In this document: one piece after another, positions 15,019 to 64,000 of the stretch
Layout: each line of letters begins with the position of its first letter
Numbering within the stretch: the stretch's first letter is position 1
Origin: an uncultured Chitinophagales bacterium
GTDB lineage: Bacteria > Bacteroidota > Ignavibacteria > UBA10030 > UBA6906
Assembly: GCA_964538485.1 (NCBI GenBank)
Contig: CAZIHJ010000001.1
Span: 13,899 to 77,898, forward strand
Direction of reading: 5' to 3'
Length of the DNA: 64,000 nucleotides
Translations under genes and position numbers: made by a program
The notes under the pieces: model-generated
The model's database searches: none
What the model was told of the DNA's origin: nothing
Seen by the model: the letters and a program-made list of their open reading frames with translations, nothing else

Positions 15019-15035
15019 ATGGCACGTATCTTGAC
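15019..15035 (+). promoter_or_regulatory. Possible sigma-54-type promoter TGGCACGtatcTTGAc upstream of PLP-lyase gene
   Basis: TGGCACG is perfect at -24; -12 reads TTGA instead of TTGC. Located ~90 nt upstream of the ATG at 15125. Confidence 0.25.
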
Positions 15036-15124: not shown

Positions 15125-16480
15125 ATGAAACGAGATCCTGAAGAAAAACAAGAAGGAAGATACTCGGTCGAGGCACATCTTATCTACGGCCAATCCCAGG
15201 ACCCGCGGTGGGATTATAGTCACCATTTGCTCCCGCCCATTTCGTCGTCCGCCACATACAGACTTGATTCCGCCCAGCGGGGAGCTCAGGGATTTACAGA
15301 GTTTGCTCACTCGAATGACGAGGTTCATGTTACCAGCAAAGCCCCAATTTATATTTATGATCGTCTCGGTGAGCCCAACAAGGACATGCTTGAAGAGAAC
15401 CTTGCATACGCTGAAGGCGGTGATATCGCTGTGACCTTTGCCAGCGGCATGGGGGCCATCTCGGCGGTGCTTGGAGTACTGACGGGGACGGGAAGCGAAA
15501 TCCTTGCCCATAAAACACTGTATGGATGCACATACTCACTGCTGACAAACTGGTATCCGCGGCTGAAGATCAAGACGGCATTTGCCGACTTCACGAACCC
15601 GGAAGAAATCAGACGGAGCATTACTCCGCAAACACGGGTCGTGTACATGGAATCGCCTGTGAACCCGACATTGCTGCTCATCGATTTGGCGGCTGTGGTA
15701 CAGGTTGTGAGAGAAGTGAACCAGAAGCGCTCACCGGAAGACAAGGTCTACACTATTGTTGATAGCACCTTTGCCACCCCGTTCTGCCAGCGACCATTGA
15801 AAATCGGTATCGACTTCGTGGTCCATTCGTTGACAAAAGCGATCGGAGGATTTGGTACTGACATCGGAGGAGTTGTCATCGGTCCGCAGTGGAGCAAAGA
15901 CATGTTGATGTTGTACCGGAAGGACTTCGGAGCGGTCCTTTCCGCGAAGAGCGCGTGGCCTGTACTTGTACAAGGTCTCCCATCGCTTGCCGTTCGGATG
16001 AGACAGATGCAGGACACAGCAATGGAAGTGGCGGAGTTTCTCGAATCCTGTCCGGAAATCGAATCAGCCCGCTATCCCGGCCTTCCTTCGTTCAGTCAGT
16101 ATGAACTGGCGCAACGACAAATGCGCGATTATGACGACAACTTCGCCCCCGGTCCGATGATCTATTTCGTGATGAAGGGAGAAGATCCTCACGACTCGTT
16201 GAAGCGTGCAGAGAGATTCATCAATCACATCGCCAAAAACGCGTACTGCATTACTCTGGCTGTTAGTCTCGGTAACATCCGCACGTTGATCGAACATCCC
16301 GGATCAATGACGCACTCCGCCATACCACCGGATGAACAACTTGCCAAAGGACTTGACCCCGGCGGAATCCGGTTGGCGATCGGTCTGGAGAAACCCGGGG
16401 ATATCATTGCAGATCTGAAATGTTCACTCGCGGGGACACGTGTCGATACGCCGGTCGAACTGGCGGACATGGAGCTTTAG
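15125..16480 (+). CDS. PLP-dependent Cys/Met-metabolism family enzyme (methionine gamma-lyase / O-acetylhomoserine sulfhydrylase-like)
   Basis: Cys_Met_Meta_PP signature: ...VDSTFATPFCQRPLKIGIDFVVHSLTKAIGG (the PLP-lysine lies in SLTK), and N-terminal YSRLGNPT-like region (IYIYDRLGEPN). Confidence 0.8.
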   Translation: MKRDPEEKQEGRYSVEAHLIYGQSQDPRWDYSHHLLPPISSSATYRLDSAQRGAQGFTEFAHSNDEVHVTSKAPIYIYDRLGEPNKDMLEENLAYAEGGDIAVTFASGMGAISAVLGVLTGTGSEILAHKTLYGCTYSLLTNWYPRLKIKTAFADFTNPEEIRRSITPQTRVVYMESPVNPTLLLIDLAAVVQVVREVNQKRSPEDKVYTIVDSTFATPFCQRPLKIGIDFVVHSLTKAIGGFGTDIGGVVIGPQWSKDMLMLYRKDFGAVLSAKSAWPVLVQGLPSLAVRMRQMQDTAMEVAEFLESCPEIESARYPGLPSFSQYELAQRQMRDYDDNFAPGPMIYFVMKGEDPHDSLKRAERFINHIAKNAYCITLAVSLGNIRTLIEHPGSMTHSAIPPDEQLAKGLDPGGIRLAIGLEKPGDIIADLKCSLAGTRVDTPVELADMEL

Positions 16481-50550: not shown

Positions 50551-51120
50551 TTACGAAAAGGGATTTCTATTGTGCTTTGCTTGTTCCAGGAGACTGGAGC
50601 AATAGGCACAAAAGCTATGACTTTTCATATCGAGTTCTTCCACATACGACGCTGCATGCATGACGCATGAATGCTGTGAGCAGTGCACGAGGCCCAGCGA
50701 GTGTCCGAGCTCATGAGTTGCTACTTTTTGCAAACGTTCCCGGACAAGGAGTGTATTTGACGGAAGTCCGTACAGCTCATTGCGGAATCGGTGATATGAT
50801 ACAACGGCAACATTCCCGCCCAGCGGGGCCTCGCCGAACACATATGTGAGTATGGGTATATACAAGTCATACCCTGTCACTCCGACGAGTTGCACCCCAT
50901 TGTCTGCGTGCCGCGGTTTTGCGCTGTTGAGTTGAGCCAGGAAATGCAGAATAGCGGTAGAATTGTATTGCCCCCGCTGCACGTCGTAGAAACGATCAAT
51001 GGCAAAGCGGTCCGGACAAATTCTTACCGGGACGCCGAACGTTTCGTGCAACGTCGAGTCCAAACCATCAAATACACCGGGGTCAACCTCTGCCAGCGGT
51101 TGTACCTCAATTGCCGTCAT
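50551..51120 (-). CDS. Archaemetzincin-family zinc metallopeptidase
   Basis: HELGHSLGLVHC (HExxHxxGxxH) followed by Cys-rich CSQHSCVMH...CAYC, characteristic of AmzA. Confidence 0.75.
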   Translation of the reverse strand: MTAIEVQPLAEVDPGVFDGLDSTLHETFGVPVRICPDRFAIDRFYDVQRGQYNSTAILHFLAQLNSAKPRHADNGVQLVGVTGYDLYIPILTYVFGEAPLGGNVAVVSYHRFRNELYGLPSNTLLVRERLQKVATHELGHSLGLVHCSQHSCVMHAASYVEELDMKSHSFCAYCSSLLEQAKHNRNPFS

Positions 51121-52459
51121 TGCGCTTTAAACCGTACTTCTGAATCTTGTGATAGAGCGTTACCCGGTCAATGTCAAGAATTGTGGCTGCGCGGCTTACA
51201 TTCCATCCTGTTTCGGCGAGAACCTCTTTGATATACTTGTGCTCCACATCTTCAAGTGTCTTCCTGCCATTGATTCCGACTACAGATGTTCTCAATGGAA
51301 GATGGTCCTTTTCAATTGTCGATCCGACACTCACCACAACAGCACGCTCGATTGCATTCTCCAACTCACGCACATTTCCCGGCCATTCATACCCCTTTAG
51401 TTCGAGCATGGCTTCACGCGAAAACCCCTCGATCCTCTTGTTCATGGCACGCGAATATTTATCAAGGAAATGATGGGCGAGTTTTGCAATATCTCCCTTC
51501 CGGCTACGGAGGGGAGGGATATGAATTGGAAAGACATTCACACGGTAAAAGAGATCTTCCCGGAACGTCCCGTCCTTAACCGCTTGCTCAAGGTCTTTGT
51601 TCGTTGCACAAATCACCCTGAAATCCGACGTGAGCACATCGCTTCCACCGACTCGTGTGAACTGCTTTGTCTCAATGACGCGGAGCAAGTCCATTTGCGT
51701 CTTTGGGTCAATGTTGCCGATTTCATCAAGGAACAATGTCCCTCCGTCGGCCATCTCGACTTTTCCCTTCCTCCGGTACTGCGCACCTGTAAATGCCCCC
51801 TTTTCGTGGCCGAAGAGTTCACTCTCCAGCAATGTCTCAGTCATCGCGCCACAGTTTACCGTGACGAGAGAAAAGAACTTTCGTTGACTGGCATTGTGAA
51901 TGGCCCGTGCTACCAGCTCCTTGCCTGTGCCGCTCTCACCGCGAATCATGACCGTGGTGTCCGCGACGGCAACGGTCTTCACAAGTTTCAAAACGTTGAG
52001 AATTTCAGGCGATTCTCCCACAATCTCATCCCCGCTGGTGAGTTCGCTGACTGCATCTTTCAACCTCTGATTTTCCTTCAGCAGTTCCTGTTCCTTGAGG
52101 ATCTTCTCCACCAGATGATCAAGGTAATCGGGGTCAATGGGTTTGGTGATGTAGTCGTACGCACCATCCTTGAGGGATTTCACGGCGGTATCCACCGCAG
52201 CAAACGCCGTGATAATGATAACGGCGATATGTTTGTTGGTCTCCTTTACACGATGCAACAGCTCGATCCCATCCATACCAGGCATCCGGATGTCGACAAA
52301 CATGATATTCCAACGATTCAATTGCAGTTTTCTTAGTGCGGCTGCGGCATTCTCCGCCACGTCAACACGGTACCCCTCTTCGGCAAACCACTTTGATAGT
52401 GATTCCCTCACAATCAACTCATCGTCCACGACGAGAATCCCGATCTCATTGTTGTTCAT
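51107..52459 (-). CDS. Sigma-54-dependent response regulator (NtrC family)
   Basis: REC (ILVVDDE...DIRMPGMDG), GESGTGKE, GAFTGA, and a Fis-type HTH at the C-terminus. Confidence 0.9.
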   Translation of the reverse strand: MNNNEIGILVVDDELIVRESLSKWFAEEGYRVDVAENAAAALRKLQLNRWNIMFVDIRMPGMDGIELLHRVKETNKHIAVIIITAFAAVDTAVKSLKDGAYDYITKPIDPDYLDHLVEKILKEQELLKENQRLKDAVSELTSGDEIVGESPEILNVLKLVKTVAVADTTVMIRGESGTGKELVARAIHNASQRKFFSLVTVNCGAMTETLLESELFGHEKGAFTGAQYRRKGKVEMADGGTLFLDEIGNIDPKTQMDLLRVIETKQFTRVGGSDVLTSDFRVICATNKDLEQAVKDGTFREDLFYRVNVFPIHIPPLRSRKGDIAKLAHHFLDKYSRAMNKRIEGFSREAMLELKGYEWPGNVRELENAIERAVVVSVGSTIEKDHLPLRTSVVGINGRKTLEDVEHKYIKEVLAETGWNVSRAATILDIDRVTLYHKIQKYGLKRNDGN

Positions 52460-54110
52460 AATCCATTTCCTTTCTTATTCCGGAAGTGTCCGGTTGCGAT
52501 GCATCCACTTCTTGCTTTACCGGAAACGTCAAGGTGAATGTAGTTCCTGCTCCCGGCCTGGAGTCCACGAGGATGGTCCCGTGGTGGTGCTGAACGATCC
52601 CATACACGACCGCCAGACCCAGACCAACACCCTTGCCTTCAGATTTTGTTGTGAAGAATGGCTCAAAAACGTGCGCCTTCACATCGTTGCTCATTCCGCA
52701 TCCTGTATCACTTACGCGAAGGATGACCTTTTCGGGTTGCTGCTGTTGCACCTCGATCTTCAGCGTTCCACCTGAAGCTCCGGGGGAGTCCATTGCTTCG
52801 ATTGCATTCGACATCAAGGCGATAAGCGCCTGTTGCAGTTGATTGGAATCTCCATCCATTACGACATCGTCTGCACGCGACACGATCACATCGATTCCAT
52901 GCATCCGGGCGTGGTGGCTCATGAGCATAACGCATCGATCCACAACCGTGTTCAAGGAAAGAGCGCCAAATGATCCGCCCCGATGTCGCGCAAAGACGAG
53001 CAGGTTCTTCACGATATTGCCACAACGGAGCGATTCATCTGCGATGAGTTTCAGTTCATCATGCATTTGCAGAAGTTCTTTTTCCGTGAGGGTGTTTCGT
53101 TTCACCCTCTTCATCAACAGTCTTGCAAATGTCAGAATGCCTTCAAGCGGGTTATTAAGTTCATGGGCAACAGTCGCCGCAAGGTTTCCTAACGATGCCA
53201 TTTTCTCCACTGTCACCATATGCCTGTGCGCCCGCTCCAGGTCCGCAGTTTTCTCTTCAACCTTCTGCTCGAGAGTTCGGGACCATTCTGTGAGTTCTTC
53301 CCGCGCCGCGGCGAGGTCATCCGTCATCCGGTTGAACGTTACAGCGAGCGTCCCGAGCTCATCACGCGATGTTGCTTCGAGTTTCTGATCCAGTTGGCCG
53401 GACGATACCAACTGCATTCCAGTCATCAATCGTTTAACAGGCCGGTTGATGACCATCCAAATGAAGCCCCCCGAAATCAAGGAGATCAACAGCACGGCGG
53501 CAAACGAAAGGAGGAGGAGCTGGTTTCTGCTTTGTTGCAGATGGACGTCCACCTGTGCAAGTGACATTTTTACGTCCAGCACCCCGAGGATGGTTTTCGA
53601 TTCCGGGTGTGCATGACACGCGGCGTCTGAACATTGCTGTTCATTCCTGATCGGAGTGATGAGTCCGAGAACGCGATCACCGTTCGGTTTGCTGAACACA
53701 CGGGTGAGCTGAGCAGGTGTTTGGGAGACGCTATCGAGATGCGAAGACGAATGACAGCTCACACACGCCTCGGCGTTCACGTCAACCTGGGTGTGCGTTT
53801 CATCCGGAATGGATCCGAAGATCACTTCACCCTGTTTGTTGTAAATGCGGATTCCCTCGAGTCCCGGCTCACCCCCGACCGAAGTGATGATGCTGCGAAC
53901 ATCATCTTTTTGATTGAGCAACATGCTGTGGCGCGTGGAGCGGGCGATGAGATCGCTGACGCGCGTCGCACTCATGATCACATTTTCCATAATGTGAGAC
54001 TGCTGGATGTGGACCGCGGCGAAGGTCAACGCAAACAGTATGATCGTCTGTACAGAGACGATCAACAAAAAGAGTCTGAACGCGATTGTCCTTGTGAGTT
54101 TCATAACCAT
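52446..54110 (-). CDS. Sensor histidine kinase with periplasmic sensor domain containing CXXCH motif(s), HAMP, HisKA, HATPase
   Basis: TM1 (residues ~8-33), a ~155-aa periplasmic domain containing ACVSCHSS (CXXCH) and CSDAACHAH, TM2, HAMP, an H-box HELNNPLEGI, and G-boxes DTGCGM and GVGLGL. Confidence 0.85.
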   Translation of the reverse strand: MVMKLTRTIAFRLFLLIVSVQTIILFALTFAAVHIQQSHIMENVIMSATRVSDLIARSTRHSMLLNQKDDVRSIITSVGGEPGLEGIRIYNKQGEVIFGSIPDETHTQVDVNAEACVSCHSSSHLDSVSQTPAQLTRVFSKPNGDRVLGLITPIRNEQQCSDAACHAHPESKTILGVLDVKMSLAQVDVHLQQSRNQLLLLSFAAVLLISLISGGFIWMVINRPVKRLMTGMQLVSSGQLDQKLEATSRDELGTLAVTFNRMTDDLAAAREELTEWSRTLEQKVEEKTADLERAHRHMVTVEKMASLGNLAATVAHELNNPLEGILTFARLLMKRVKRNTLTEKELLQMHDELKLIADESLRCGNIVKNLLVFARHRGGSFGALSLNTVVDRCVMLMSHHARMHGIDVIVSRADDVVMDGDSNQLQQALIALMSNAIEAMDSPGASGGTLKIEVQQQQPEKVILRVSDTGCGMSNDVKAHVFEPFFTTKSEGKGVGLGLAVVYGIVQHHHGTILVDSRPGAGTTFTLTFPVKQEVDASQPDTSGIRKEMDYEQQ

Positions 54111-54281: not shown

Positions 54282-55502
54282 TCATCCCCGTGAATCTGCG
54301 GGGACAAAACCCGCTCCGGCACCCGGGAGCTCCACTGCCTCTGAAACGTGGTCAGCACCCGCCACATGGCCGTGTTCGACCTCTTTCCCGAACACATCGA
54401 AGTACCGGGCAACAAATGAGAACGCAACGAATCCAAACGCGGCGAGAGCTATGGTGATGGCAAGTTCCTGCCATGAAGGAATATATGTCCGCGTTTGCCA
54501 CTGCTCCATGCTGGTGATGGCGGTATTCAATCTGTGGGCGACGAACCCAAGCAACACAAGAACGGAGGAATAGAACAGCCCGGTTTTACTCGTCCGGACT
54601 TTCTTGAACAGGAGCAGAGCGAAAGGAACCAGCACTCCCAATACGACTTCGCCAATGAACATCATGCTCTGGTACGTTGGTTCAAACACGTATTGTAATG
54701 CATCCCGATTCACCAGATCCTGAATTCGTACAGTGAAGTACAGAGCAAGCACGACTACCACGACTTTCGCCAACTGGGAGAGCAATGGCAGTTCTATTTC
54801 TCTCCCGAAGGCTCGCGCTGAAAGGAAGGATTCGAAGATCGTCATGCACAACCCTGCCGCAACGCACGAGATGATGAAGAGAAACGGAATGACGTTGGAA
54901 TACCAGAGCGGGTGCATTCTGCCTGGGATGATAAGGAACAGTGACCCGAGGGAAGACTGGTGGAGAGTAGAAAGAAGCACACCCGCAACGACCAATGGAA
55001 TAGTGATTGCCTTGACGACCTTCAACGCTCGCTTGAGCCGGAAACGCTCAAGAATCACGGGGCTAAACTCCAACGCGAGCACCGTGGTGTACAGCATCAC
55101 GCACCAGGCAACTTCGAACATCACCGATCTTGGGTTCCAATAAATGAGTGCGTGCCAGATGGCCCACGGACGCCCGAGATCAACCATCAGGCCTGCAATG
55201 ACAAGCAGATATCCGAGAAACGCTGTAAGAATGGTTGGTCGGAGAATTGGTCTGAACCGCTCAATGTTGAAGATATACACTGCCGCCGCGATCGTGAATC
55301 CGCCTGCTGCGAGTCCGACCCCAACCAGAATATCGAACCCGATCCATAATCCCCACGGAAATGTATCTGCGAGATTAGTTGTGGCCCCGAGGCCGAGAGT
55401 GAAGCGCTGGATCGTCGCCACAAGTCCGGCCACCATCAACGCCACGGCAACTACTTTCCAAAAAGTTATCTTAAGAAGTCCAGGAAATTTCATGATCATC
55501 AC
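54282..55502 (-). CDS. NrfD/PsrC-family polytopic membrane quinol-interacting subunit
   Basis: Roughly 10 TM helices with the NrfD-like pattern (GLWIGFDILVGVGLAAGG...). Start codon overlaps the stop of the upstream NrfC-like gene. Confidence 0.8.
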   Translation of the reverse strand: MMIMKFPGLLKITFWKVVAVALMVAGLVATIQRFTLGLGATTNLADTFPWGLWIGFDILVGVGLAAGGFTIAAAVYIFNIERFRPILRPTILTAFLGYLLVIAGLMVDLGRPWAIWHALIYWNPRSVMFEVAWCVMLYTTVLALEFSPVILERFRLKRALKVVKAITIPLVVAGVLLSTLHQSSLGSLFLIIPGRMHPLWYSNVIPFLFIISCVAAGLCMTIFESFLSARAFGREIELPLLSQLAKVVVVVLALYFTVRIQDLVNRDALQYVFEPTYQSMMFIGEVVLGVLVPFALLLFKKVRTSKTGLFYSSVLVLLGFVAHRLNTAITSMEQWQTRTYIPSWQELAITIALAAFGFVAFSFVARYFDVFGKEVEHGHVAGADHVSEAVELPGAGAGFVPADSRG

Positions 55503-56281
55503 CTTGTGTTAGTATTTGCTTGATCGTCTTTTTTGCGCAACTCCTCGGCTTCGAACCTCGCTACTTCTGTTCGACGTGCGGTGATCCAATGAATGCCGAA
55601 GAGTACCACGCTCGCTGCAACCGTGTACTTCGGAATTTGTGAGAGCACGCGCCACGAGAGATTGGGAATCGGCTCATTTGGAATGTTCATCGGGAAACCG
55701 AGCTTCTCAAACGGTATGGCAGAGATGTACAGGACGGAAGTTCCCCCGGCCTCTTTCAGTCCATAGATGTAGTTCACATACTGTCCGGGATTCTCGTCGA
55801 TGCGTTTTCTTGCTTCCGTGATCATCTCATCCCGATCACCGAAGGTTGTCGCTCCGAACTGGCACGCTTCAGCGCATGCTGTTGGCTGACCTGCAGTCAC
55901 GCGCTCATAGCACATCTTGCACTTCTGGACTCTTGGCGCAAGACTGCTCCATTCATAGCGTGGGATCTCAAATGGACATGCCTGCATACAGTACCGGCAT
56001 CCGATGCACTTCGACTCATCGTAGACAACGGCACCGGTTTCTGTCTTAGTGAACGCTCCCACGAGACAGGCAGAAACACACGTCGGCTCGTTACAGTGCA
56101 TACACAGTTTGCGCACATGGACTTCGTCATTCTGGAAGCTTTTCAACACGGTGTATCGGGTTGAGGAGAGCTCCTGCCCATCCTCCTGGGGAAGACCGTT
56201 TGTTTCTGCGCAGGCACGTGTGCATTCGCCACACCCCACACACTTGGTGATATCGATAAGCAACGCTTTTGACGTACTCAT
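55499..56281 (-). CDS. NrfC/PsrB/HybA-like 4x[4Fe-4S] ferredoxin subunit with C-terminal TM anchor
   Basis: CVGCGECTRAC, CMHCNEPTCVSAC, CIGCRYCMQACP and CKMC...C clusters, plus a C-terminal hydrophobic helix. Confidence 0.85.
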   Translation of the reverse strand: MSTSKALLIDITKCVGCGECTRACAETNGLPQEDGQELSSTRYTVLKSFQNDEVHVRKLCMHCNEPTCVSACLVGAFTKTETGAVVYDESKCIGCRYCMQACPFEIPRYEWSSLAPRVQKCKMCYERVTAGQPTACAEACQFGATTFGDRDEMITEARKRIDENPGQYVNYIYGLKEAGGTSVLYISAIPFEKLGFPMNIPNEPIPNLSWRVLSQIPKYTVAASVVLFGIHWITARRTEVARFEAEELRKKDDQANTNTR

Positions 56282-56991
56282 TGGCCGATCTCCTTGTGAT
56301 CAGACTCTTGTGCTTTGCGTAAGGTCGTGAACGTGTGACCGAAATCCTCCCAGATGCGATCGTCAAGCTGCTGGAGAACGCCGTCGACCGGCAACCCGCC
56401 CTCCTGTAAGGTCACCGGCTGTCCCTCCATCTCATTCATCGCAATAAAGTCCCGCACCAATACCACTTGTTCCCGCAACCATTCCATCGGTTGGCGGATA
56501 ATGTATTGTCGTGATGCTGCAATATCATCTACCCTTGATTTCAAACGGACAAGCCATCCCTTTCCATACGGATCAGTCATTATGAGCGAAGGGTCTCTCA
56601 GAACATCAGGGTTCGGCTCGACAACTCCACCGGCAACAGGTGTTGCCAGCCGGAATGATCGGCCGTTCGCACCCATTGAAAAATCAGCAAAAGAGGGTCT
56701 CGTCGTCTCTCCAGCGGGTGGGACGGCGATTGTTTCAACTACTCCCATCAGCCGGCTGAGAAACCCGTCAATCCCCAGCGTAATTGTCCCATCGTGGTTG
56801 GTCCGCATCCACATATGGTTGGTAGCGAGTTCGACATCCTGCGGGAGGTGACTCGGGAGTTGGAAAGGCCGTGGCCGCGATGTCGCCTGGAATGGCTTTC
56901 GCACCGCGACAGGCCGGCTACGTTTTTTTTGAACAACGTGGTCGATTGCCAGGAAAGTAATCAGTGTGCACAGCACGAGTAAGACAGTCAT
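56278..56991 (-). CDS. Membrane-anchored glycine-cleavage H-protein-like (GcvH-fold) protein lacking the lipoyl-lysine
   Basis: N-terminal TM helix, then NHMWMRTNHDGTITLGIDGFLSRLMGVVETIAVP...PYGKGWLVRLK. This parallels GcvH (KEHEWL...GITEHAQ...VFVDLP...ESVKA...SEPYAGGWIFKIK) but no Lys sits at the lipoylation position. GGAGG RBS. Confidence 0.6.
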   Translation of the reverse strand: MTVLLVLCTLITFLAIDHVVQKKRSRPVAVRKPFQATSRPRPFQLPSHLPQDVELATNHMWMRTNHDGTITLGIDGFLSRLMGVVETIAVPPAGETTRPSFADFSMGANGRSFRLATPVAGGVVEPNPDVLRDPSLIMTDPYGKGWLVRLKSRVDDIAASRQYIIRQPMEWLREQVVLVRDFIAMNEMEGQPVTLQEGGLPVDGVLQQLDDRIWEDFGHTFTTLRKAQESDHKEIGQ

Positions 56992-57003
56992 GGTAGTTCT
57001 CCT

Positions 57004-57657
57004 CTATGATTTCAATTTCTTTTCCGTGACTAACGAACCGTCACGCACATCGACATGGAAAAACTGGCGAGCGATGCTCGACCACTCTTCGTCCGAGCAC
57101 TTGTCAGCGAGATTCTGCAACAGAACACCACCCTCCTGGAACATCAATGCGGGTGTTCTCGAAAAGAACCTGAGAAGTTCAGCGCGTTCCATATCCTGCC
57201 ATTTGATAGCCGCCCTTCCAGTGAAGAGATTGTTCAATTGGAAGTTGAGTTTGGTTGGCCGCACTTTGAGCAGCCATCCATCACCATAGGGGGAGCTATT
57301 GACAAGTGCAGGGTTGTTCTTCACCATTTCATTTTTTTCGATTACCCAACCGGTCACCGGACTTCTCATGGGCACCACTCGATTACCATGCCGTACGACC
57401 CATCCAACCTCCCCCTGGCGTACGCGACGAAGCAACCGTGGGAGCCTCAACTCATCAACGGCCCCGATGACTGATTGCCCGAAATCATCGATCCCGATAA
57501 CAACATCTCCATCCCGGGTCTGTCTCATCCATGTATGACCCGGATGCATGTAGCGTTTCACCATCACAGGTTCAGGATGGGCTTCAGGTTTTTCTTTTGC
57601 CATCATTCGGATGAGAATGATGACCGTCGCAGTGATTATTGCAAGTATAAGCGACAT
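57004..57657 (-). CDS. Membrane-anchored GcvH-like protein, paralog of the downstream gene, lacking lipoyl-lysine
   Basis: Trimmed to the ATG at 57657, which has an AGGAGG RBS. TM helix, then YMHPGHTWMRQTRDGDVVIGIDDFGQSVIGAVDELRLP...RHGNRVVPMRSPVTGWVIEKN...NSSPYGDGWLLKVRP, which aligns with GcvH position by position. The lipoyl-Lys is replaced by RHGNR. Confidence 0.6.
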   Translation of the reverse strand: MSLILAIITATVIILIRMMAKEKPEAHPEPVMVKRYMHPGHTWMRQTRDGDVVIGIDDFGQSVIGAVDELRLPRLLRRVRQGEVGWVVRHGNRVVPMRSPVTGWVIEKNEMVKNNPALVNSSPYGDGWLLKVRPTKLNFQLNNLFTGRAAIKWQDMERAELLRFFSRTPALMFQEGGVLLQNLADKCSDEEWSSIARQFFHVDVRDGSLVTEKKLKS

Positions 57658-58038
57658 GGCAACCTCCTTTGGGTTTCTGTTCACCTCTGTCGAAGAGTAA
57701 TAGTCCCAAGAAGTTTGCCAGATCACTCACGGGTTTTCAGCGGTGTAAACTCGTGCGACACAATAGGTTGAAACCTGTTGCAAAAACGAACATGTGATGA
57801 GATGAAACAAGAAGTTGAATAACACAACAGCGCCTTCGGCTGAGAGTCGGGATTTTAGCTGGATCTGGTTGTTATCAATGGAGTTGGAAGTGTGTTGAAA
57901 ATTGAAGCGAGAATGTGTAAGTAATCATCACTTCCAGACTGGAGAGTCGCTGATGCGGGAACAAAGTCAAGCCACGCTCATGTTGCCCCACCGGACGGAC
58001 TTTACACCTCCGAAAGTAACTGTTGAGGTTTTCAATAC

Positions 58039-58052: not shown

Positions 58053-58191
58053 CCCCTTATTTCTCACAACTGAGAACCTCCACCCATGATTGAGATGCAA
58101 TTTCAGCGTTTTCATTGCTTTCTACCTCGGCATGTGCTTTGAATCTATGAAGGGTGTTGATTTGACAATACAACGGTTGATCTATCAGGTG

Positions 58192-60330
58192 ATGAAAACC
58201 TTTACACTCATACTGACACTTGTCTTCTCTTCGAATGTTGGACCGGATCTTCTGGCCCAGGACAACAATCAGTGTTTGACCTGTCATGGCGAGCATGCCC
58301 TTTCTATGGAGAAGAGGGGAAAGTCAATTTCCCTTTTTGTGAATCCGCCCGCATTCCAGAAGTCAGCACACGGTGATCTCGAATGCGTTGGATGTCACGA
58401 AGGACTTTCTGGCGACGAGATTCCGCATGCAAAGAAGATCAATGCGGTTGACTGCATGAGCTGCCACGACAGCCAGGGGCTTACCCACTACAAGGAGAGC
58501 GTCCACGCACTGAAGAAGGCGAATGGATCTACTGCGGCTACCTGTGCGGACTGTCATTCAAAGCACGCGATTCAGAGAATCTCTGAAAAGGATCCACATG
58601 CAAGGCAAGAATTTGGTATTGGGGTCTGCGCGACGTGTCACGGTGATCTGAAAAACAAGTTCATGGCTTCGGACCATGGTAAGGCCTTCAAGGCCGGCAC
58701 AAAAGGGGCTCCGGCTTGCATAGACTGTCATGGCGAACACGGGGTCCAGTCCGCGATGAATGACTCTTCGACCACAAACCACAAGCAAGTTGCGGCAATG
58801 TGCTTGAATTGTCATCTGGACAATCCCGACGTACGCGCGAAAGTCGGGCCGTCTGCCGGGTTTGTGTCGAGCTACGAGCAAAGCGTTCATGGCCAGGCTG
58901 TGCAACATGGGAATGATATGGCTGCAACGTGTACTGACTGCCACAGCAGTCATGAGATGCGAAAGGGTTCCGATCCCGTATCAAAGGTTGCAAAGAAAAA
59001 TATCGCATCCACATGCGGACAGTGTCACGGCGATGTTGAAGAGCAGTACAAGTACAGTGTCCACGGCAAAGCGGTTGCTGCCGGTATTGGGGCTTCAGCG
59101 ACGTGCACAGATTGCCATGGCGAGCACAACATTCTTTCTCCAAAAGACGACCGTTCACCCGTCTCTGCCAGGAACGTCTCTGTGCAGGTTTGCTCTCCCT
59201 GTCACGCATCGGTCAAACTCAACGAGAAGTACGGGCTCGCCAGTGACCGGTTCCAGAGCTTTGCCGATAGCTATCATGGGCTGGCAGGACGGGCGGGCGA
59301 TGTTGAGGTTGCCAATTGTGCCAGTTGCCATGGTGTTCACGACATCAAGCCTTCTTCGGATTCCACTTCAAGGATCCATCCAAAGAATCTTGTCAACACG
59401 TGTGGTTCATGTCATCCCGGGGCGAACGAGAATTTTGCCCAGGGTTCTGTGCACGTGATTGCGACGTCCGGCCAGGACAGGGTGCTGTATTTCGTTTCCA
59501 CCTCATACATTATCCTGATTATTGTGACGATTGGAGGGATGTTCTTCCACAATCTTCTCGACTTCATCAGGAAATCAAAAAGAAAACTCATGGAACGGCG
59601 CGGGTTGATCCATCACCGACCTGCGGAAAACCGGCTGTACCTGAGGATGTCATTAGGCGAGAGGATTCAGCACGGTACATTGCTCGTCAGTTTTACAACG
59701 CTTGTTCTTACAGGGTTTGCACTCAGGTTTCCGGATGCCTGGTGGGTAGCACCTGTGCGCGATATCAGTCCGATGATGTTTGAACTCCGAAGCCTCAGTC
59801 ACAGGATTGCCGGTGTTGTAATGGTACTCGTGAGTCTCTATCATGTCTACTATGTTCTTATTGTCCCGCGAGGCAAGCAACTCCTGCGCGATATGCTTCC
59901 CGAACGGAACGATCTTACGGATGTGATTGGCGTTTTGAAATACAATCTTGGGATGGCTGCCGTGAAACCGGGGTTCAAGCGCTTCAGCTACATTGAGAAA
60001 GCGGAGTATTGGGCGCTCATCTGGGGGACGTTCGTGATGGCCGCAACCGGATTTATCCTCTGGTTTGACAACACGTTTATAGGCCTCTTCACCAAGCTTG
60101 GATGGGACGTTGCACGGACCATTCATTACTACGAGGCCTGGCTAGCAACACTCGCAATCATCGTCTGGCATTTCTACTTCGTGATTTTCAACCCGGACAC
60201 GTATCCCCTCAACCTCGCTTTCTGGAAGGGAACGCTCACTGAGGAAGAAATGCGGGAAGAACATCCCCTGGAGTTGGATGAATTGAAGCGAGAGGAAGAA
60301 TCGGAAAAAGAAATAGGCGGGGAGAGTTAG
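58192..60330 (+). CDS. Multiheme cytochrome c (13 CXXCH) fused to C-terminal di-heme cytochrome b (FdnI/PhsC/HybB-like) membrane domain
   Basis: Trimmed to the ATG at 58192 (signal peptide MKTFTLILTLVFSSNVGPDLLAQ). Thirteen CXXCH motifs occur between residues 30 and 440. The C-terminal ~270 aa forms 4-5 TM helices with conserved His pairs (IQHGTLL...; SHRIAGVVMVLVSLYHVYYV; WHFYFVIFNP), typical of b-type cytochrome subunits of formate dehydrogenase or hydrogenase. Confidence 0.8.
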   Translation: MKTFTLILTLVFSSNVGPDLLAQDNNQCLTCHGEHALSMEKRGKSISLFVNPPAFQKSAHGDLECVGCHEGLSGDEIPHAKKINAVDCMSCHDSQGLTHYKESVHALKKANGSTAATCADCHSKHAIQRISEKDPHARQEFGIGVCATCHGDLKNKFMASDHGKAFKAGTKGAPACIDCHGEHGVQSAMNDSSTTNHKQVAAMCLNCHLDNPDVRAKVGPSAGFVSSYEQSVHGQAVQHGNDMAATCTDCHSSHEMRKGSDPVSKVAKKNIASTCGQCHGDVEEQYKYSVHGKAVAAGIGASATCTDCHGEHNILSPKDDRSPVSARNVSVQVCSPCHASVKLNEKYGLASDRFQSFADSYHGLAGRAGDVEVANCASCHGVHDIKPSSDSTSRIHPKNLVNTCGSCHPGANENFAQGSVHVIATSGQDRVLYFVSTSYIILIIVTIGGMFFHNLLDFIRKSKRKLMERRGLIHHRPAENRLYLRMSLGERIQHGTLLVSFTTLVLTGFALRFPDAWWVAPVRDISPMMFELRSLSHRIAGVVMVLVSLYHVYYVLIVPRGKQLLRDMLPERNDLTDVIGVLKYNLGMAAVKPGFKRFSYIEKAEYWALIWGTFVMAATGFILWFDNTFIGLFTKLGWDVARTIHYYEAWLATLAIIVWHFYFVIFNPDTYPLNLAFWKGTLTEEEMREEHPLELDELKREEESEKEIGGES

Positions 60331-60573: not shown

Positions 60574-61116
60574 ATGAGATCAACCATGCAGTTTATTGCA
60601 GTCATACTTGTTACTCTCGTCGTGGTAAGCGTAAGTGCTGCGGACAATAAGTTCACGGGCGCCAAGATGTGCGCCGCGTGCCACAAGGCAGGTAAAGGCG
60701 GAACTGCTTTTGCCGTTTGGGAGAAGAGCGCCCACGCACACGCATTTCAAACATTGCTCAGTGATGCCTCAAAGAAAATTGCAAAAGAAAAGGGTTTAAA
60801 GACGGCACCCAGTGAAAGTCCGGAGTGTTTGAAGTGTCATGTCACCGGCGGCGGTGCTGCGAAGAATATTGAGGCCTCGTTCAAGAAGGAAGAAGGCATC
60901 ACATGCGAAGCATGCCACGGGGCGGCATCCGGCTACAAGATGCTTCACAGCAAGGGTGATCTTGCAAAGTCAAAAGCGGCAGGAATGGATCCCGGGCAGA
61001 AAGATGCGAAATTCTGCGTTACCTGTCACAACGCTGAGAGTCCCTCACACAAATCAGCTTTCAAACTCGACGAGATGTGGTCGAAGATAGAACACCCACT
61101 GCCGGCAAAGAAATGA
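60574..61116 (+). CDS. Periplasmic tetraheme cytochrome c (c3-like)
   Basis: Signal peptide, then CAACH, CLKCH, CEACH and CVTCH in 180 aa. Confidence 0.8.
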   Translation: MRSTMQFIAVILVTLVVVSVSAADNKFTGAKMCAACHKAGKGGTAFAVWEKSAHAHAFQTLLSDASKKIAKEKGLKTAPSESPECLKCHVTGGGAAKNIEASFKKEEGITCEACHGAASGYKMLHSKGDLAKSKAAGMDPGQKDAKFCVTCHNAESPSHKSAFKLDEMWSKIEHPLPAKK

Positions 61117-61173: not shown

Positions 61174-62691
61174 GTGTTTACCACGGAGTCCCACTTGAAG
61201 CGCCGATTTCCGGATGTCATCTACAATCCCATCAGCATAGTAGGCGCAGCACTCGCAAGCGTCAGCTTTGCAACCATTCTCTTTCTAACGCTGGTCGATA
61301 TTATGCAGGAGCACCCCCCCGCATACATCGGCATTATCTCCTATGTTGTCCTTCCCATACCGTTGATCATCGGTCTGGCGCTCATCCCGATTGGCATTCT
61401 GCGCGAGAAATCCCGTTTACGCAAGGGATTGCCCGCCAGCCGGATGTCATTTAGTATTGATCTGAACATTCCAAGGCAACGGACTGCGGTGACGCTCTTC
61501 GCAGGTGCAACCGTTATTTTCCTGTTATTCACGGCGTACGGAAGTTACAGGACATTTGAATGGACGGAATCAGTCGAGTTCTGCGGTGAAACTTGTCACT
61601 CAGTGATGGAACCGGAATTCACTGCATACTTGAATTCTCCTCATGCGCGGGTAAAGTGTGTGGATTGTCATGTCGGATCCGGAGCGGATTGGTACCTCAA
61701 GTCGAAGCTCAGTGGTGCGTACCAGGTGTATGCTGTTCTGGTGGATAATTATCCCCGTCCGATCCCGACGCCGATAGCGAACTTGCGTCCGGCGCAGGAA
61801 ACATGTGAACAGTGTCACTGGCCGTCTCACTTTGCAGGTGAGAAGAAGTATGTCAACACGTACTTCAAGTCCGACGAACAGAATACGCGTTGGACGATTG
61901 CCCTTTTGATGAAGACCGGTGGAGGAAGTGCCGATCGTACTCCGACGAGCGGTATTCACTGGCATATGAATATCGCCAATGAGATTACCTACGTCGCGAC
62001 GGACAGTCAGCGTCAGACGATTCCATGGGTGAAGGTTAGAAATCAATCAACGGGTGAGGAGACCGAATATCTCTCGTCGGATGCAACGGAGTCGATGGAC
62101 CATTTCAGGCAACTCCCATCCAACAGAGTAGACTGTATTGATTGTCACAACAGGCCGTCGCACATCTATCGTCCACCTGTCCGCATTGTGGATCAGAGCC
62201 TTGCACTCGGCAGAATCAGCACGGATCTTCCCAGTATTCGGGCAGCGTCCATTCAGGCGTTGACGGAACCCTACACGTCAACGAAAGCAGCGATGGACAG
62301 TATCCCGTTGTTGATGGCCGGATTTTACGCGGATCAGTATCCCGCTGTTGCGAATGAGAAGAAGGAGTTGATCAAGGCTGCTTCGGAAGAGCTTAAAACA
62401 CAATTCAGCCGGAACTTTTTCCCCGGGATGAAGGTCAACTGGAAGGCATATCCCAACAACATCGGACATATGACAGACATCGGCTGTTTTCGATGCCACG
62501 ATGGGAAGCACGTCAGCGCCACGGGCAAGACGATCTCAAAGGATTGCAATAGCTGTCATACGATTCTCTATCAGGGCAGCGATCCTGTTCCGACAACTAT
62601 GAGTATTGCTGGATTGGAATTCCAACACCCTGAAGACATTGGTGAGATCTGGAAGGAAATGAACTGCAAGGATTGTCACACCGGGCAGTGA
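61174..62691 (+). CDS. Membrane-anchored multiheme cytochrome c (7 CXXCH; NapC/NrfH-superfamily-like N-terminus with 2-3 TM helices)
   Basis: The open frame begins after a TGA at 61141; the first plausible start is GTG at 61174. Hydrophobic helices (ISIVGAALASVSFATILFLTLV; IGIISYVVLPIPLIIGLALIPIGIL; VTLFAGATVIFLLF) precede CGETCH, CVDCH, CEQCH, CIDCH, CFRCH, CNSCH and CKDCH. Confidence 0.75.
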   Translation: MFTTESHLKRRFPDVIYNPISIVGAALASVSFATILFLTLVDIMQEHPPAYIGIISYVVLPIPLIIGLALIPIGILREKSRLRKGLPASRMSFSIDLNIPRQRTAVTLFAGATVIFLLFTAYGSYRTFEWTESVEFCGETCHSVMEPEFTAYLNSPHARVKCVDCHVGSGADWYLKSKLSGAYQVYAVLVDNYPRPIPTPIANLRPAQETCEQCHWPSHFAGEKKYVNTYFKSDEQNTRWTIALLMKTGGGSADRTPTSGIHWHMNIANEITYVATDSQRQTIPWVKVRNQSTGEETEYLSSDATESMDHFRQLPSNRVDCIDCHNRPSHIYRPPVRIVDQSLALGRISTDLPSIRAASIQALTEPYTSTKAAMDSIPLLMAGFYADQYPAVANEKKELIKAASEELKTQFSRNFFPGMKVNWKAYPNNIGHMTDIGCFRCHDGKHVSATGKTISKDCNSCHTILYQGSDPVPTTMSIAGLEFQHPEDIGEIWKEMNCKDCHTGQ

Positions 62692-62885
62692 ATTAAGGAA
62701 TCTCCTGATTGCAGGTTTGATAAAAGGCAGGTGTTTCCCTTATGATTGTTGAGAATGAGCCGCATGACTGTCCGGGGAGTGTTGATTTAAGATGGATTTG
62801 GCTGATTCTCCTGGCGTTTCGTTGGCACACGGCTTGATAATATCGAGACAGCATTTTGATTATCCATCGAGAGCGAATCAAACCT

Positions 62886-64000
62886 ATGAACGCTGATACT
62901 GCATTCTCGAAGAGTTTCAAACACATTCTTCTTCTCCTTGCCCTTTCTTTTGGCTGTTCATCGCTTTCAATCGGGCAATTGGTCAACGGTCGTTTTATTA
63001 CATCGGTGTATTCCTGGAAGCAGTATGAAACCGTGGACGTGTCGAAGACATTTACTCGGGGATTTCAGTCCGTCCTCCTTGACGTTGCGCAGAACGATTT
63101 CAGCCTTCATGGCCACTTCCAGGGAGCGGTGATGCTGCAAAGCAAGCTCGATGAGCTTCCGGACTACCGGCTGTATTACGGTTATGCACAATGGAGGAAC
63201 ATCGCTGATGTCGCCGATCTCTCCTTTGGCAGGGTACCGTTCTTTGCCGGTGTGGGTTCGGGAACGATAGACGGCGCGCTGGCAAGATTCCGTGTTGCGG
63301 AGAATGCATGGCGGTTGACGTTCTACGGAGGCGCGAATACTCCTGCGGATATGACGGTGAAAAAATGGGGCCCTCTCAAGAACAACTTTACCATCGGCGG
63401 GCAGATTCTGACGACGGCTGTTGAAGACTGGCGCTTCGGTCTCAGTTACATGAACCGACAGCGTGAGAGTCCGGGCTACTGGACGCTTCGGTCCGACTCG
63501 CTGTTTACTCCATTCGCCCTCTACATTGATCCGAATCAGGCGAAGGAACAGTATGCAAGCGCCGATATCTCCTATTCCCTGAACAACATTAACCTTCGTG
63601 CTCTCTGCGATTACAACATCGACTATGAGAAGACCCAACGAGCACTTGTGAGTGCCCGCTACTATCCATCAGATGACTGGATTGTCAGTGCAGAGTACAT
63701 CCACCGGGCCCCCCGATTGATGTCGAATTCCTTCTTTGCGGTCTTCAATGCGCACACGATTGATGAGATAGAAGGTGGTGCGGATTACACGGTGTTACCT
63801 TCCGTTCGCGTGTTTGCCCGCGGAGCGTACGTGCAATATTCTGGCGATAATAGTTTTCGCTACACGGTGGGTGTAGCCAACGACTACGCTTCCGCCAGTT
63901 ACCGGGGAAGCACGGGATATGCCGGGGAACTACACTCCGTCTCATTGCAGGGATCGTATCCTCTGTGCGATCGGATGTTTATTCCGACTGCCGGTCTTTC
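62886..64000 (+). CDS. Probable outer-membrane beta-barrel protein, partial (continues past window end)
   Basis: Not in the ORF track because it has no stop within the window. ATG at 62886 gives MNADTAFSKSFKHILLLLALSFGCSSLSIGQ (signal peptide), followed by 340 aa of alternating-hydrophobicity, Tyr/Gly/Arg-rich sequence (YGYAQWRN..., TFYGGAN..., FGLSYMNRQ..., ADISYSLNN...) typical of a porin-like barrel. The opposite-strand ORF 62967..63638 is a shadow of this frame. Confidence 0.5.
   Translation, partial: MNADTAFSKSFKHILLLLALSFGCSSLSIGQLVNGRFITSVYSWKQYETVDVSKTFTRGFQSVLLDVAQNDFSLHGHFQGAVMLQSKLDELPDYRLYYGYAQWRNIADVADLSFGRVPFFAGVGSGTIDGALARFRVAENAWRLTFYGGANTPADMTVKKWGPLKNNFTIGGQILTTAVEDWRFGLSYMNRQRESPGYWTLRSDSLFTPFALYIDPNQAKEQYASADISYSLNNINLRALCDYNIDYEKTQRALVSARYYPSDDWIVSAEYIHRAPRLMSNSFFAVFNAHTIDEIEGGADYTVLPSVRVFARGAYVQYSGDNSFRYTVGVANDYASASYRGSTGYAGELHSVSLQGSYPLCDRMFIPTAGL

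Follow-up and report, generated by a model that had tools for sequence, protein, structure and literature searches.

The barrel gene at the end of the window

The window analysed here, a 64,000-nucleotide stretch from an uncultured bacterium assigned to the Ignavibacteria (assembly GCA_964538485.1, contig CAZIHJ010000001.1, positions 13,899 to 77,898), ends inside a gene for a predicted outer-membrane beta-barrel protein that directly follows a group of multi-haem cytochrome genes. On the forward strand, the ATG at position 62886 opens a frame of 371 sense codons that meets no stop up to base 63998, and reading from 62887 is out of frame and runs into many stops. The part of the gene contained in the window (62886..64000, forward strand) is its 5' portion, comprising 371 of 438 codons (85%), as judged from the open reading frame (ORF), its homologues and an AlphaFold2 model. 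The full-length product was identified as database protein P0001, which is encoded on a 96-kb NCBI contig, has 438 residues and is 100% identical across all 371 residues of the truncated frame. The forward frame has 151 homologues at E ≤ 0.001, with a best E of 2e-250 and identities down to about 40%. They originate from metagenome contigs and metagenome-assembled genomes (MAGs), and the few that are labelled appear as hypothetical proteins of Ignavibacteria or Bacteroidota. The frame opening at 62886 is a real gene.

The mechanical ORF list of the window omits frames that run off the source, and this gene is therefore unlisted. The list shows an antisense ORF at 62967..63638 on the reverse strand (223 residues, TTG start), and this listing is the one point in favour of the converse assignment, in which the forward frame would be a chance opening and the antisense ORF the true gene. 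Against it stand the 151 homologues of the forward frame, the 547 representative clusters of its family described below and its confident predicted fold, together with the interruption of the antisense frame in relatives, where the longest open stretch measures from 75 to 392 residues and 76 residues in the closest of them. We regard this assignment as vanishingly improbable, and the antisense ORF was rejected as a gene. The original prediction, made from the letters of the window, had described an open frame of 371 codons, missing from the ORF list for want of a stop and accompanied by an antisense shadow; it was right on all three points.

Predicted fold and export of the barrel protein

The AlphaFold2 model, built on 44 homologues, is an all-beta barrel that follows an N-terminal helix, with a mean predicted local distance difference test score (pLDDT) of 86.5 and a predicted template modelling score (pTM) of 0.74. 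The helix comprises residues 6-27 and was read as a signal peptide, while the first strand opens at Q31, a residue that is invariant across the barrel family. On this model, the signal peptide would span about residues 1-30 and the mature barrel would start at Q31, in agreement with the signal peptide that had been claimed for the frame. The precursor also has a cysteine in the signal-peptide region (Cys24, encoded by 62955-62957, in the context LSFGC-SS), and a cysteine occurs at a similar position in the two closest relatives. Cys24 was rejected as a lipoprotein site, given that the preceding residues fit a lipobox poorly and that the cysteine is absent from most relatives; cleavage by signal peptidase I before Q31 appears more likely than lipoprotein processing.

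DSSP assigned 24 strand elements to the barrel model. Two of these, 198-203 and 209-214, measure just six residues each and are flanked by long strands; we read this pair as a protruding loop hairpin, which would leave 22 membrane strands, the alternative being 24. Short turns alternate with long loops, the pattern of a barrel whose two termini both face the periplasm. The modelled barrel is wide and lacks a plug, and a hand estimate from the usual formula for barrel geometry, with the shear number assumed to be 24, gives a C-alpha radius of about 20 Å for 22 strands. This radius is comparable to that of 22-strand receptors that contain a plug and slightly below that of the 26-strand MtrB.

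The hydrophobic and polar faces of the strands differ in mean hydropathy by 2.11, a value beyond all 1000 shuffles (1.24 ± 0.18, maximum 1.96). The polar face, in which Arg, Asp, Gln and Ser are frequent, is more conserved than the hydrophobic one (0.73 vs 0.61); a conserved polar lumen of this sort would fit a barrel that holds a protein partner. The protein itself contains no haem motif (0 CXXCH and 0 CX3-5CH).

When the model was compared with the PDB by Foldseek, only outer-membrane barrels were returned (OmpM1, the FimD and PapC ushers, AlgE, chitoporin and Occ porins), with E values of about 1e-9 to 1e-10 and template modelling (TM) scores of 0.3-0.5. The best query-normalised TM-scores, of about 0.5, belong to the FimD usher barrel, which has 24 strands, and MtrB is absent from the top 50 matches. 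At the sequence level, no Pfam family matched the protein at E ≤ 0.1, MtrB_PioB included, and NCBIfam yielded a single, sub-threshold match (E 0.002), to the barrel region of the export porin PgaA. Searching the PDB sequences with a profile of the barrel family gave nothing meaningful and no solved relative, and no Pcc-type (porin-cytochrome) complex turned up among the solved structures searched. The barrel topology anticipated by the original prediction is upheld by the confident model of the full-length protein, by the dyad pattern of its strands and by structural matches made up of barrels only.

Cytochrome genes downstream of the barrel gene in related loci

We read 26 distinct related loci, found through an alignment of ten sequences, 25 of which include DNA downstream of the barrel gene. 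In each of these 25 Ignavibacteria/Bacteroidota loci, a CXXCH-rich ORF lies directly after the barrel gene. Where complete, it encodes 348-400 residues by called genes and up to 401 in L004, L019, L021 and L025; some of the ORF calls in this count are start-extended. The number of CXXCH motifs is 12 in the clade nearest the window, whose protein has about 353 residues, and 14 in a more distant clade, with 400-401 residues in the four loci just named. The spacing between both genes is tight, at 9-11 nucleotides or a 4-nucleotide overlap (-4 to +11 nucleotides; L001-L004), and the 12- or 14-haem protein has a plain signal peptide and no lipobox.

The cytochromes encoded further downstream in L001-L004 do carry lipoboxes (LAGC, LTGC, ILGC, LGAC), as well as one or two CX4CH motifs each. 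In some loci they are two proteins of about 385 residues (5+1 haem motifs) and about 300 residues (6+1), and in others a single fused protein of about 467 residues (11+2); the clade of the window has two separate proteins rather than a fused one. The last lipoprotein cytochrome matches the Geobacter CxxxxCH/CxxCH domain TIGR01904 above its cut-off. In loci that extend far enough, the cytochromes are followed by a gene for a CcmF/NrfE-like haem lyase (L001 14836-17154, L002 15034-17280, L003 14731-16965 and L004 14192-16426; TIGR03145, E 8e-86, below its cut-off). By analogy with NrfE, which acts on CXXCK, this enzyme may serve specifically to attach haem at the CX4CH sites.

The closest locus, L001, encodes a barrel that is 80% identical, and its genes, sensor kinase through barrel, stand in the order seen in the window. 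Because of this shared order, the downstream part of the window's own locus is very likely the same, and the next gene past base 64000 would then encode a soluble periplasmic 12-haem cytochrome.

The wider barrel family

Searched with a profile of the family, 1.84 billion representative proteins yielded 547 clusters (50% identity) at E ≤ 0.001, of which 135 reach E ≤ 1e-30. Family members are mostly 400-450 residues long, and every named database copy among the homologues is called a "hypothetical protein". The distant barrels that we followed up, at a profile E of about 1e-29, are P0367, from a 3.5-Mb Zixibacteria genome, and its relatives. In the Zixibacteria locus (L030, 8001-11853) and in L032 (8001-13480), the barrel gene is followed within 6-15 nucleotides by a gene for a cytochrome of about 350 residues and then by one for a large cytochrome (505 or 1064 residues), while in L031 (8001-14837) a 1607-residue cytochrome is encoded about 650 nucleotides downstream of the barrel. 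The genes surrounding these three modules are unrelated to respiration. The cytochrome of about 350 residues from the Zixibacteria locus is homologous to that of L001 (30% identity, E 2e-44).

Since cytochromes are retained in these distant loci and the Zixibacteria one of about 350 residues is homologous to that of L001, the barrel and its periplasmic partner stay linked as one module in different phyla, and the distant loci suggest a mobile three-gene conduit cassette. Among the 25 close and 3 distant loci, no family member was found without cytochromes. Porins of Ignavibacterium album or Geobacter were not among the matches of queries P0114 and P0367 or of the cluster look-ups, which consist of MAG and metagenome proteins only.

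Cytochrome genes upstream of the barrel gene

The original prediction had placed a membrane-anchored seven-haem cytochrome and a tetrahaem cytochrome before the barrel gene, and both are found there. The former (61174..62691, forward strand) has three hydrophobic segments, near residues 15-45, 48-78 and 103-124, a NapC/NirT/NrfH-like region (Cytochrom_NNT, E 1.7e-12) and seven haem motifs at residues 137 (CGETCH), 162, 211, 321, 438, 458 and 498, the first being CX3CH and the other six CXXCH. ImcH, an inner-membrane quinol oxidase of Geobacter, is described with at most three transmembrane helices, a region like NapC/NirT and seven haem motifs, of which the first is CXXXCH (PMC4251993). The product of the 61174..62691 gene appears to have this same architecture, and we call it ImcH-like on the strength of the published description. 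The tetrahaem protein (60574..61116, forward strand) is a putative periplasmic cytochrome of the c554 type by family match, with a signal peptide and four CXXCH motifs. Before it, a third gene (58090..60330, forward strand) encodes a fusion of 13 CXXCH motifs with a following membrane domain of the cytochrome b561/HydC type, which resembles the CbcL/MtoC/MtrH design discussed in PMC6295460.

Two variations were seen in this part of the related loci. In L002 (5870-8885), genes for a Rieske protein, a cytochrome b and an 11-haem cytochrome are inserted between the ImcH-like gene and the barrel gene, and 11-haem ORFs of about 500 residues also occur in L010, L023, L027, L028 and L029, pointing to a complex of the bc type in which one subunit is multi-haem. 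Loci of the more distant clade have, right after the CbcL-like gene, genes for a 19-haem cytochrome of about 670 residues and a separate membrane protein of about 280-300 residues (L003 4826-7700, L004 4920-7764, and also L019, L021 and L025). The L002 counterpart of this membrane protein has a weak cytochrome b-type match, and the pair looks like a second, split CbcL-like unit.

Sigma-54-type motifs and adjacent regulators

A sigma-54-type -24/-12 promoter-like motif (TGGCAC-N5-TTGA; 62823..62837, forward strand) lies 48 nucleotides before the ATG of the barrel gene. Across 393 kb of non-duplicate related loci, the pattern TGGCAY-N5-TTGM gave 40 matches on the strand of the genes and a single one on the opposite strand, as against about 1.5 per strand expected from base frequencies. 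The matches mostly stand some 35-50 nucleotides before particular start codons. The motif precedes the CcmF-like gene in 16 loci and a Usp gene in two; the barrel gene has it in 8 loci, which all belong to the clade nearest the window, and the CbcL-like gene in 7 from the more distant clade. Positions include, among many others, 9940 and 14786 in L001, 1272, 2538 and 14684 in L003, and 1621, 2725 and 14142 in L004. A scan for sigma-70 promoters and terminators around the barrel gene performed no better than chance.

Domain matches identify a sigma-54-dependent response regulator with receiver, Sigma54_activat and HTH_8 domains (51107..52459, reverse strand) and, paired with it, a HAMP/HisKA/HATPase sensor histidine kinase (52446..54110, reverse strand). 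A kinase and a regulator of this kind adjoin the cytochrome cluster in the window, L001, L003 and L004. From the motif distribution we infer that the cluster is a sigma-54 regulon, in which the barrel gene would head its own transcription unit in the clade of the window, and the adjacent kinase and activator probably control the promoters of the cluster.

Another sigma-54-like motif, at 15020-15034, is located about 90 nucleotides before a gene for a pyridoxal phosphate (PLP) enzyme of Cys/Met metabolism (15125-16480). In L003 and L004, a gene for a homologous enzyme of 442 residues comes shortly after the cytochrome cluster.

Discussion

Together, these features lead us to read the barrel gene, with good though not full confidence, as encoding the sheath, in the outer membrane, of a porin-cytochrome conduit of the Geobacter-like Pcc type. 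A Pcc complex is composed of a porin-like protein and of periplasmic and outer-membrane multi-haem cytochromes, and its porins have 18-22 predicted strands and its periplasmic partners 5-14 haems (PMC4245776). The protein described here is secreted, haem-free and 438 residues long, and its approximately 22 predicted strands fall within that range. A co-oriented gene for a periplasmic cytochrome adjoins it in all 25 close loci as well as in L030 and L032 (-4 to +15 nucleotides), and presumably, by collinearity, next to the window's barrel gene; in L001-L004, lipobox cytochromes with CX4CH motifs complete the set, at positions that in the window's locus would lie outside the window.

The closest described counterpart is that of Ignavibacterium album, whose cluster encodes a periplasmic cytochrome (IALB_1840), a porin (IALB_1839), a second periplasmic cytochrome of 400 residues and 14 haems (IALB_1838) and an outer-membrane cytochrome with an atypical motif (IALB_1837) (PMC4245776). 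Both clusters belong to the Ignavibacteria/Bacteroidota lineage and share the order of periplasmic cytochrome, porin, large periplasmic cytochrome and outer cytochrome with atypical CXnCH, and IALB_1838 corresponds in size and haem count to the product of the gene next to the barrel gene in L004, L019, L021 and L025. The clade of the window differs in its 12-haem partner of about 353 residues and its two separate lipoprotein cytochromes, and the I. album paper names no ImcH-like or CbcL-like protein, sigma-54 promoter or CcmF-like lyase as part of the cluster (PMC4245776). OmbB-like porin-cytochrome clusters have also been described in Ignavibacteria MAGs and in the Fe(III) reducer Melioribacter roseus (PMC7399161, PMC6137239). 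In this regard, the present cluster appears to add to a Pcc kind already known from I. album and M. roseus.

The resemblance extends to the OmbB-OmaB-OmcB and OmbC-OmaC-OmcC conduits of Geobacter sulfurreducens, in which a barrel, a periplasmic and an outer-membrane lipoprotein multi-haem cytochrome are likewise encoded together and the outermost cytochromes share the CxxxxCH/CxxCH domain. The haem numbers differ, the periplasmic partner having 12-14 here and 8 in OmaB, and the outer cytochromes about 6-13 here and 12 in OmcB. The Shewanella MtrCAB and the Mto/Pio systems follow the same principle, that is, a haem-free barrel that sheathes a periplasmic multi-haem cytochrome and is capped by a surface lipoprotein cytochrome. 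However, MtrB has about 700 residues and 26 strands in the MtrCAB structure, whereas the barrel studied here is about 40% shorter, has approximately 22 predicted strands and gives no MtrB_PioB match, and its partner has 12-14 haems as compared with 10 in MtrA. On these grounds, the conduit is not of the Mtr type. An earlier prediction for MtrB had given 28 strands (PMC4245776). The Geobacter clusters ExtABCD, ExtEFG and ExtHIJKL are alternative porin-cytochrome clusters that, by their description, have the same architecture as the one reported here (PMC13591261). In contrast, Cyc2 and the GM18_3465-type proteins are outer-membrane barrels of electron transfer that carry haem motifs in the same polypeptide, of which our barrel has none.

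The original prediction had proposed an Mtr/Pcc-type conduit in which the barrel partners the seven-haem and tetrahaem cytochromes encoded before it. Of the two types, the Pcc one is supported by the barrel and by the downstream cytochromes, and the Mtr one is not. The association with cytochromes holds in all 25 loci, but the upstream proteins are more likely an inner-membrane quinol oxidase (seven haems) and a periplasmic shuttle (four haems), and the direct partners of the barrel are probably encoded by the downstream genes, outside the window. As ImcH-like, CbcL-like and c554-type genes adjoin the barrel gene, the locus has a candidate gene for each step that takes electrons from the quinol pool to the cell surface.

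The open frame, the barrel fold, the haem counts, the signal and lipoprotein sequences, the strict gene order and the non-random distribution of the sigma-54-type motif come directly from the analysis; from them we infer how the complex forms, which way electrons flow, what they reduce and how the genes are regulated. The barrel, exported through its Sec signal peptide, folds into about 22 strands with neither plug nor haem, and the 12-haem periplasmic cytochrome would insert into it from the periplasmic side. One or two lipoprotein cytochromes would attach to the outer face and thereby complete an unbroken chain of haems from one side of the membrane to the other. Electrons from the menaquinol pool would pass through the ImcH-like and CbcL-like cytochromes to the c554-type tetrahaem shuttle and on to the conduit, and would leave to extracellular acceptors such as minerals of Fe(III) or Mn(IV), humics, electrodes or partner cells. 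In this model, the barrel gene would start its own sigma-54-dependent unit, under the adjacent kinase and activator.

Several points weigh against this model. The barrel has neither a match to a curated family, save the sub-threshold one to PgaA, nor a sequence-level solved relative; its Foldseek matches appear generic and single out nothing specific; and its likeness to OmbB/OmbC, ExtB/E/I and IALB_1839 is drawn from published descriptions. A monomer model cannot show a cytochrome occupying the lumen, and the partner cytochrome genes themselves lie outside the window, their presence being deduced from collinearity with relatives. The -12 element of the motif at 62823..62837 is TTGA and not the canonical TTGC, and within the window taken alone the three motifs observed, as against 0.97 expected, are not significant. 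Finally, the sequence does not fix the direction of electron flow, and the outward direction is a matter of judgement.

This last point leaves room for the same conduit working inwards, with electrons entering from Fe(II), a cathode or a syntrophic partner towards the quinone pool, as has been proposed for Mto/Pio. CbcL/MtoC/MtrH homologues do occur in metal reducers and metal oxidisers alike (PMC6295460). Yet the locus combines ImcH-like and CbcL-like genes, both of which are described as electron-export quinol oxidases in Geobacter (PMC4251993, PMC6295460), the other genes of the window (PFOR, PFK, malic enzyme-PTA) point to an anaerobic heterotroph, and the cultured relative M. roseus reduces Fe(III) (PMC6137239), so that we consider inward flow rather improbable. 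A different function, in which the barrel would export or assemble the surface lipoprotein cytochromes (as a Slam-like translocon or anchor) instead of sheathing a haem wire, is suggested by the wide, plug-free barrel and by the lipoprotein cytochromes encoded two and three genes downstream, which must reach the cell surface. This function seems very unlikely to us, as the constant next gene (-4 to +11 nucleotides) encodes a 12- or 14-haem cytochrome that is no lipoprotein and is still paired with the barrel in the distant Zixibacteria locus, barrel plus periplasmic cytochrome is the pairing of MtrAB and OmbB-OmaB, and neither Pfam nor NCBIfam gave a match to known translocon families.

The barrel might also be taken for a general diffusion or nutrient porin with cytochrome neighbours by chance, a notion compatible with its lack of haem motifs and of a specific family assignment, and with Foldseek matches that include ordinary porins (OmpM1, chitoporin, Occ proteins). 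The relatives speak otherwise: a multi-haem cytochrome gene follows in 25 of 25 close loci and is also found downstream in the 3 distant ones, within unrelated neighbourhoods, and the existence of a module across phyla therefore rules out a generic nutrient porin in practice. Moreover, some 22 strands exceed the 16-18 of diffusion porins, and the barrel matched no Pfam or NCBIfam porin model, those of the OmpF, Porin_4 and OprD types included. We accordingly hold this explanation to be extremely improbable. The nutrient porin without cytochromes in relatives, which the original prediction had named as the outcome that would overturn it, was thus not encountered.

A further reading concerns ancestry. 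The barrel family could be a large superfamily without a curated model, structurally and evolutionarily separate from MtrB and OmbB, and thereby a third independent class of conduit instead of a Pcc homologue. There is room for such an independent lineage because Shi et al. call the I. album porin only distantly related to other Pcc porins (PMC4245776), and because our comparison with OmbB and IALB_1839 is by description only. In that case, a sheath of about 22 strands would have been inherited with its own insert of about 350-400 residues and 12-14 haems in Ignavibacteria, Zixibacteria and other uncultured lineages, and, within the Ignavibacteria, it would form part of a sigma-54 regulon together with a dedicated CcmF/NrfE-type lyase for CX4CH sites. 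We regard this proposal, in each of its parts, as unlikely but conceivable, and favour the Pcc-type assignment.

As a Pcc-type sheath, the barrel gene marks an uncultured Ignavibacteria-like organism as a probable performer of extracellular electron transfer, with iron, manganese, humics or electrodes as possible counterparts, and a single locus appears to hold the complete pathway of quinol oxidases, periplasmic shuttle and outer-membrane conduit. Given that no curated model covers this large barrel family, conduits of this sort are under-called in metagenome surveys of iron cycling, and the alignment, together with the strict pairing of barrel and 12-14-haem cytochrome, could seed a family model. 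The compact barrel of 438 residues with its partner of about 350 is a reasonable structural target, and the conserved sigma-54 promoters offer a testable handle on how the pathway is switched.

Divergent genes beside the cluster

Between the regulator genes and the cytochrome cluster, four divergent genes occupy 54282-57726 on the reverse strand. Two of them encode an NrfD/HmcC/HybB-like membrane protein (54282-55502) and an HmcB/HybA-like 4Fe-4S protein (55499-56281), and the other two encode proteins of about 240 residues with a GcvH domain (56278-56991 and 57004-57726), each preceded by an N-terminal extension that is hydrophobic by eye. The same four genes, NrfD-like, HmcB-like and two with a GcvH domain, are found in L001, and the pairing of GcvH-like proteins with an NrfCD-type quinone module is unusual.

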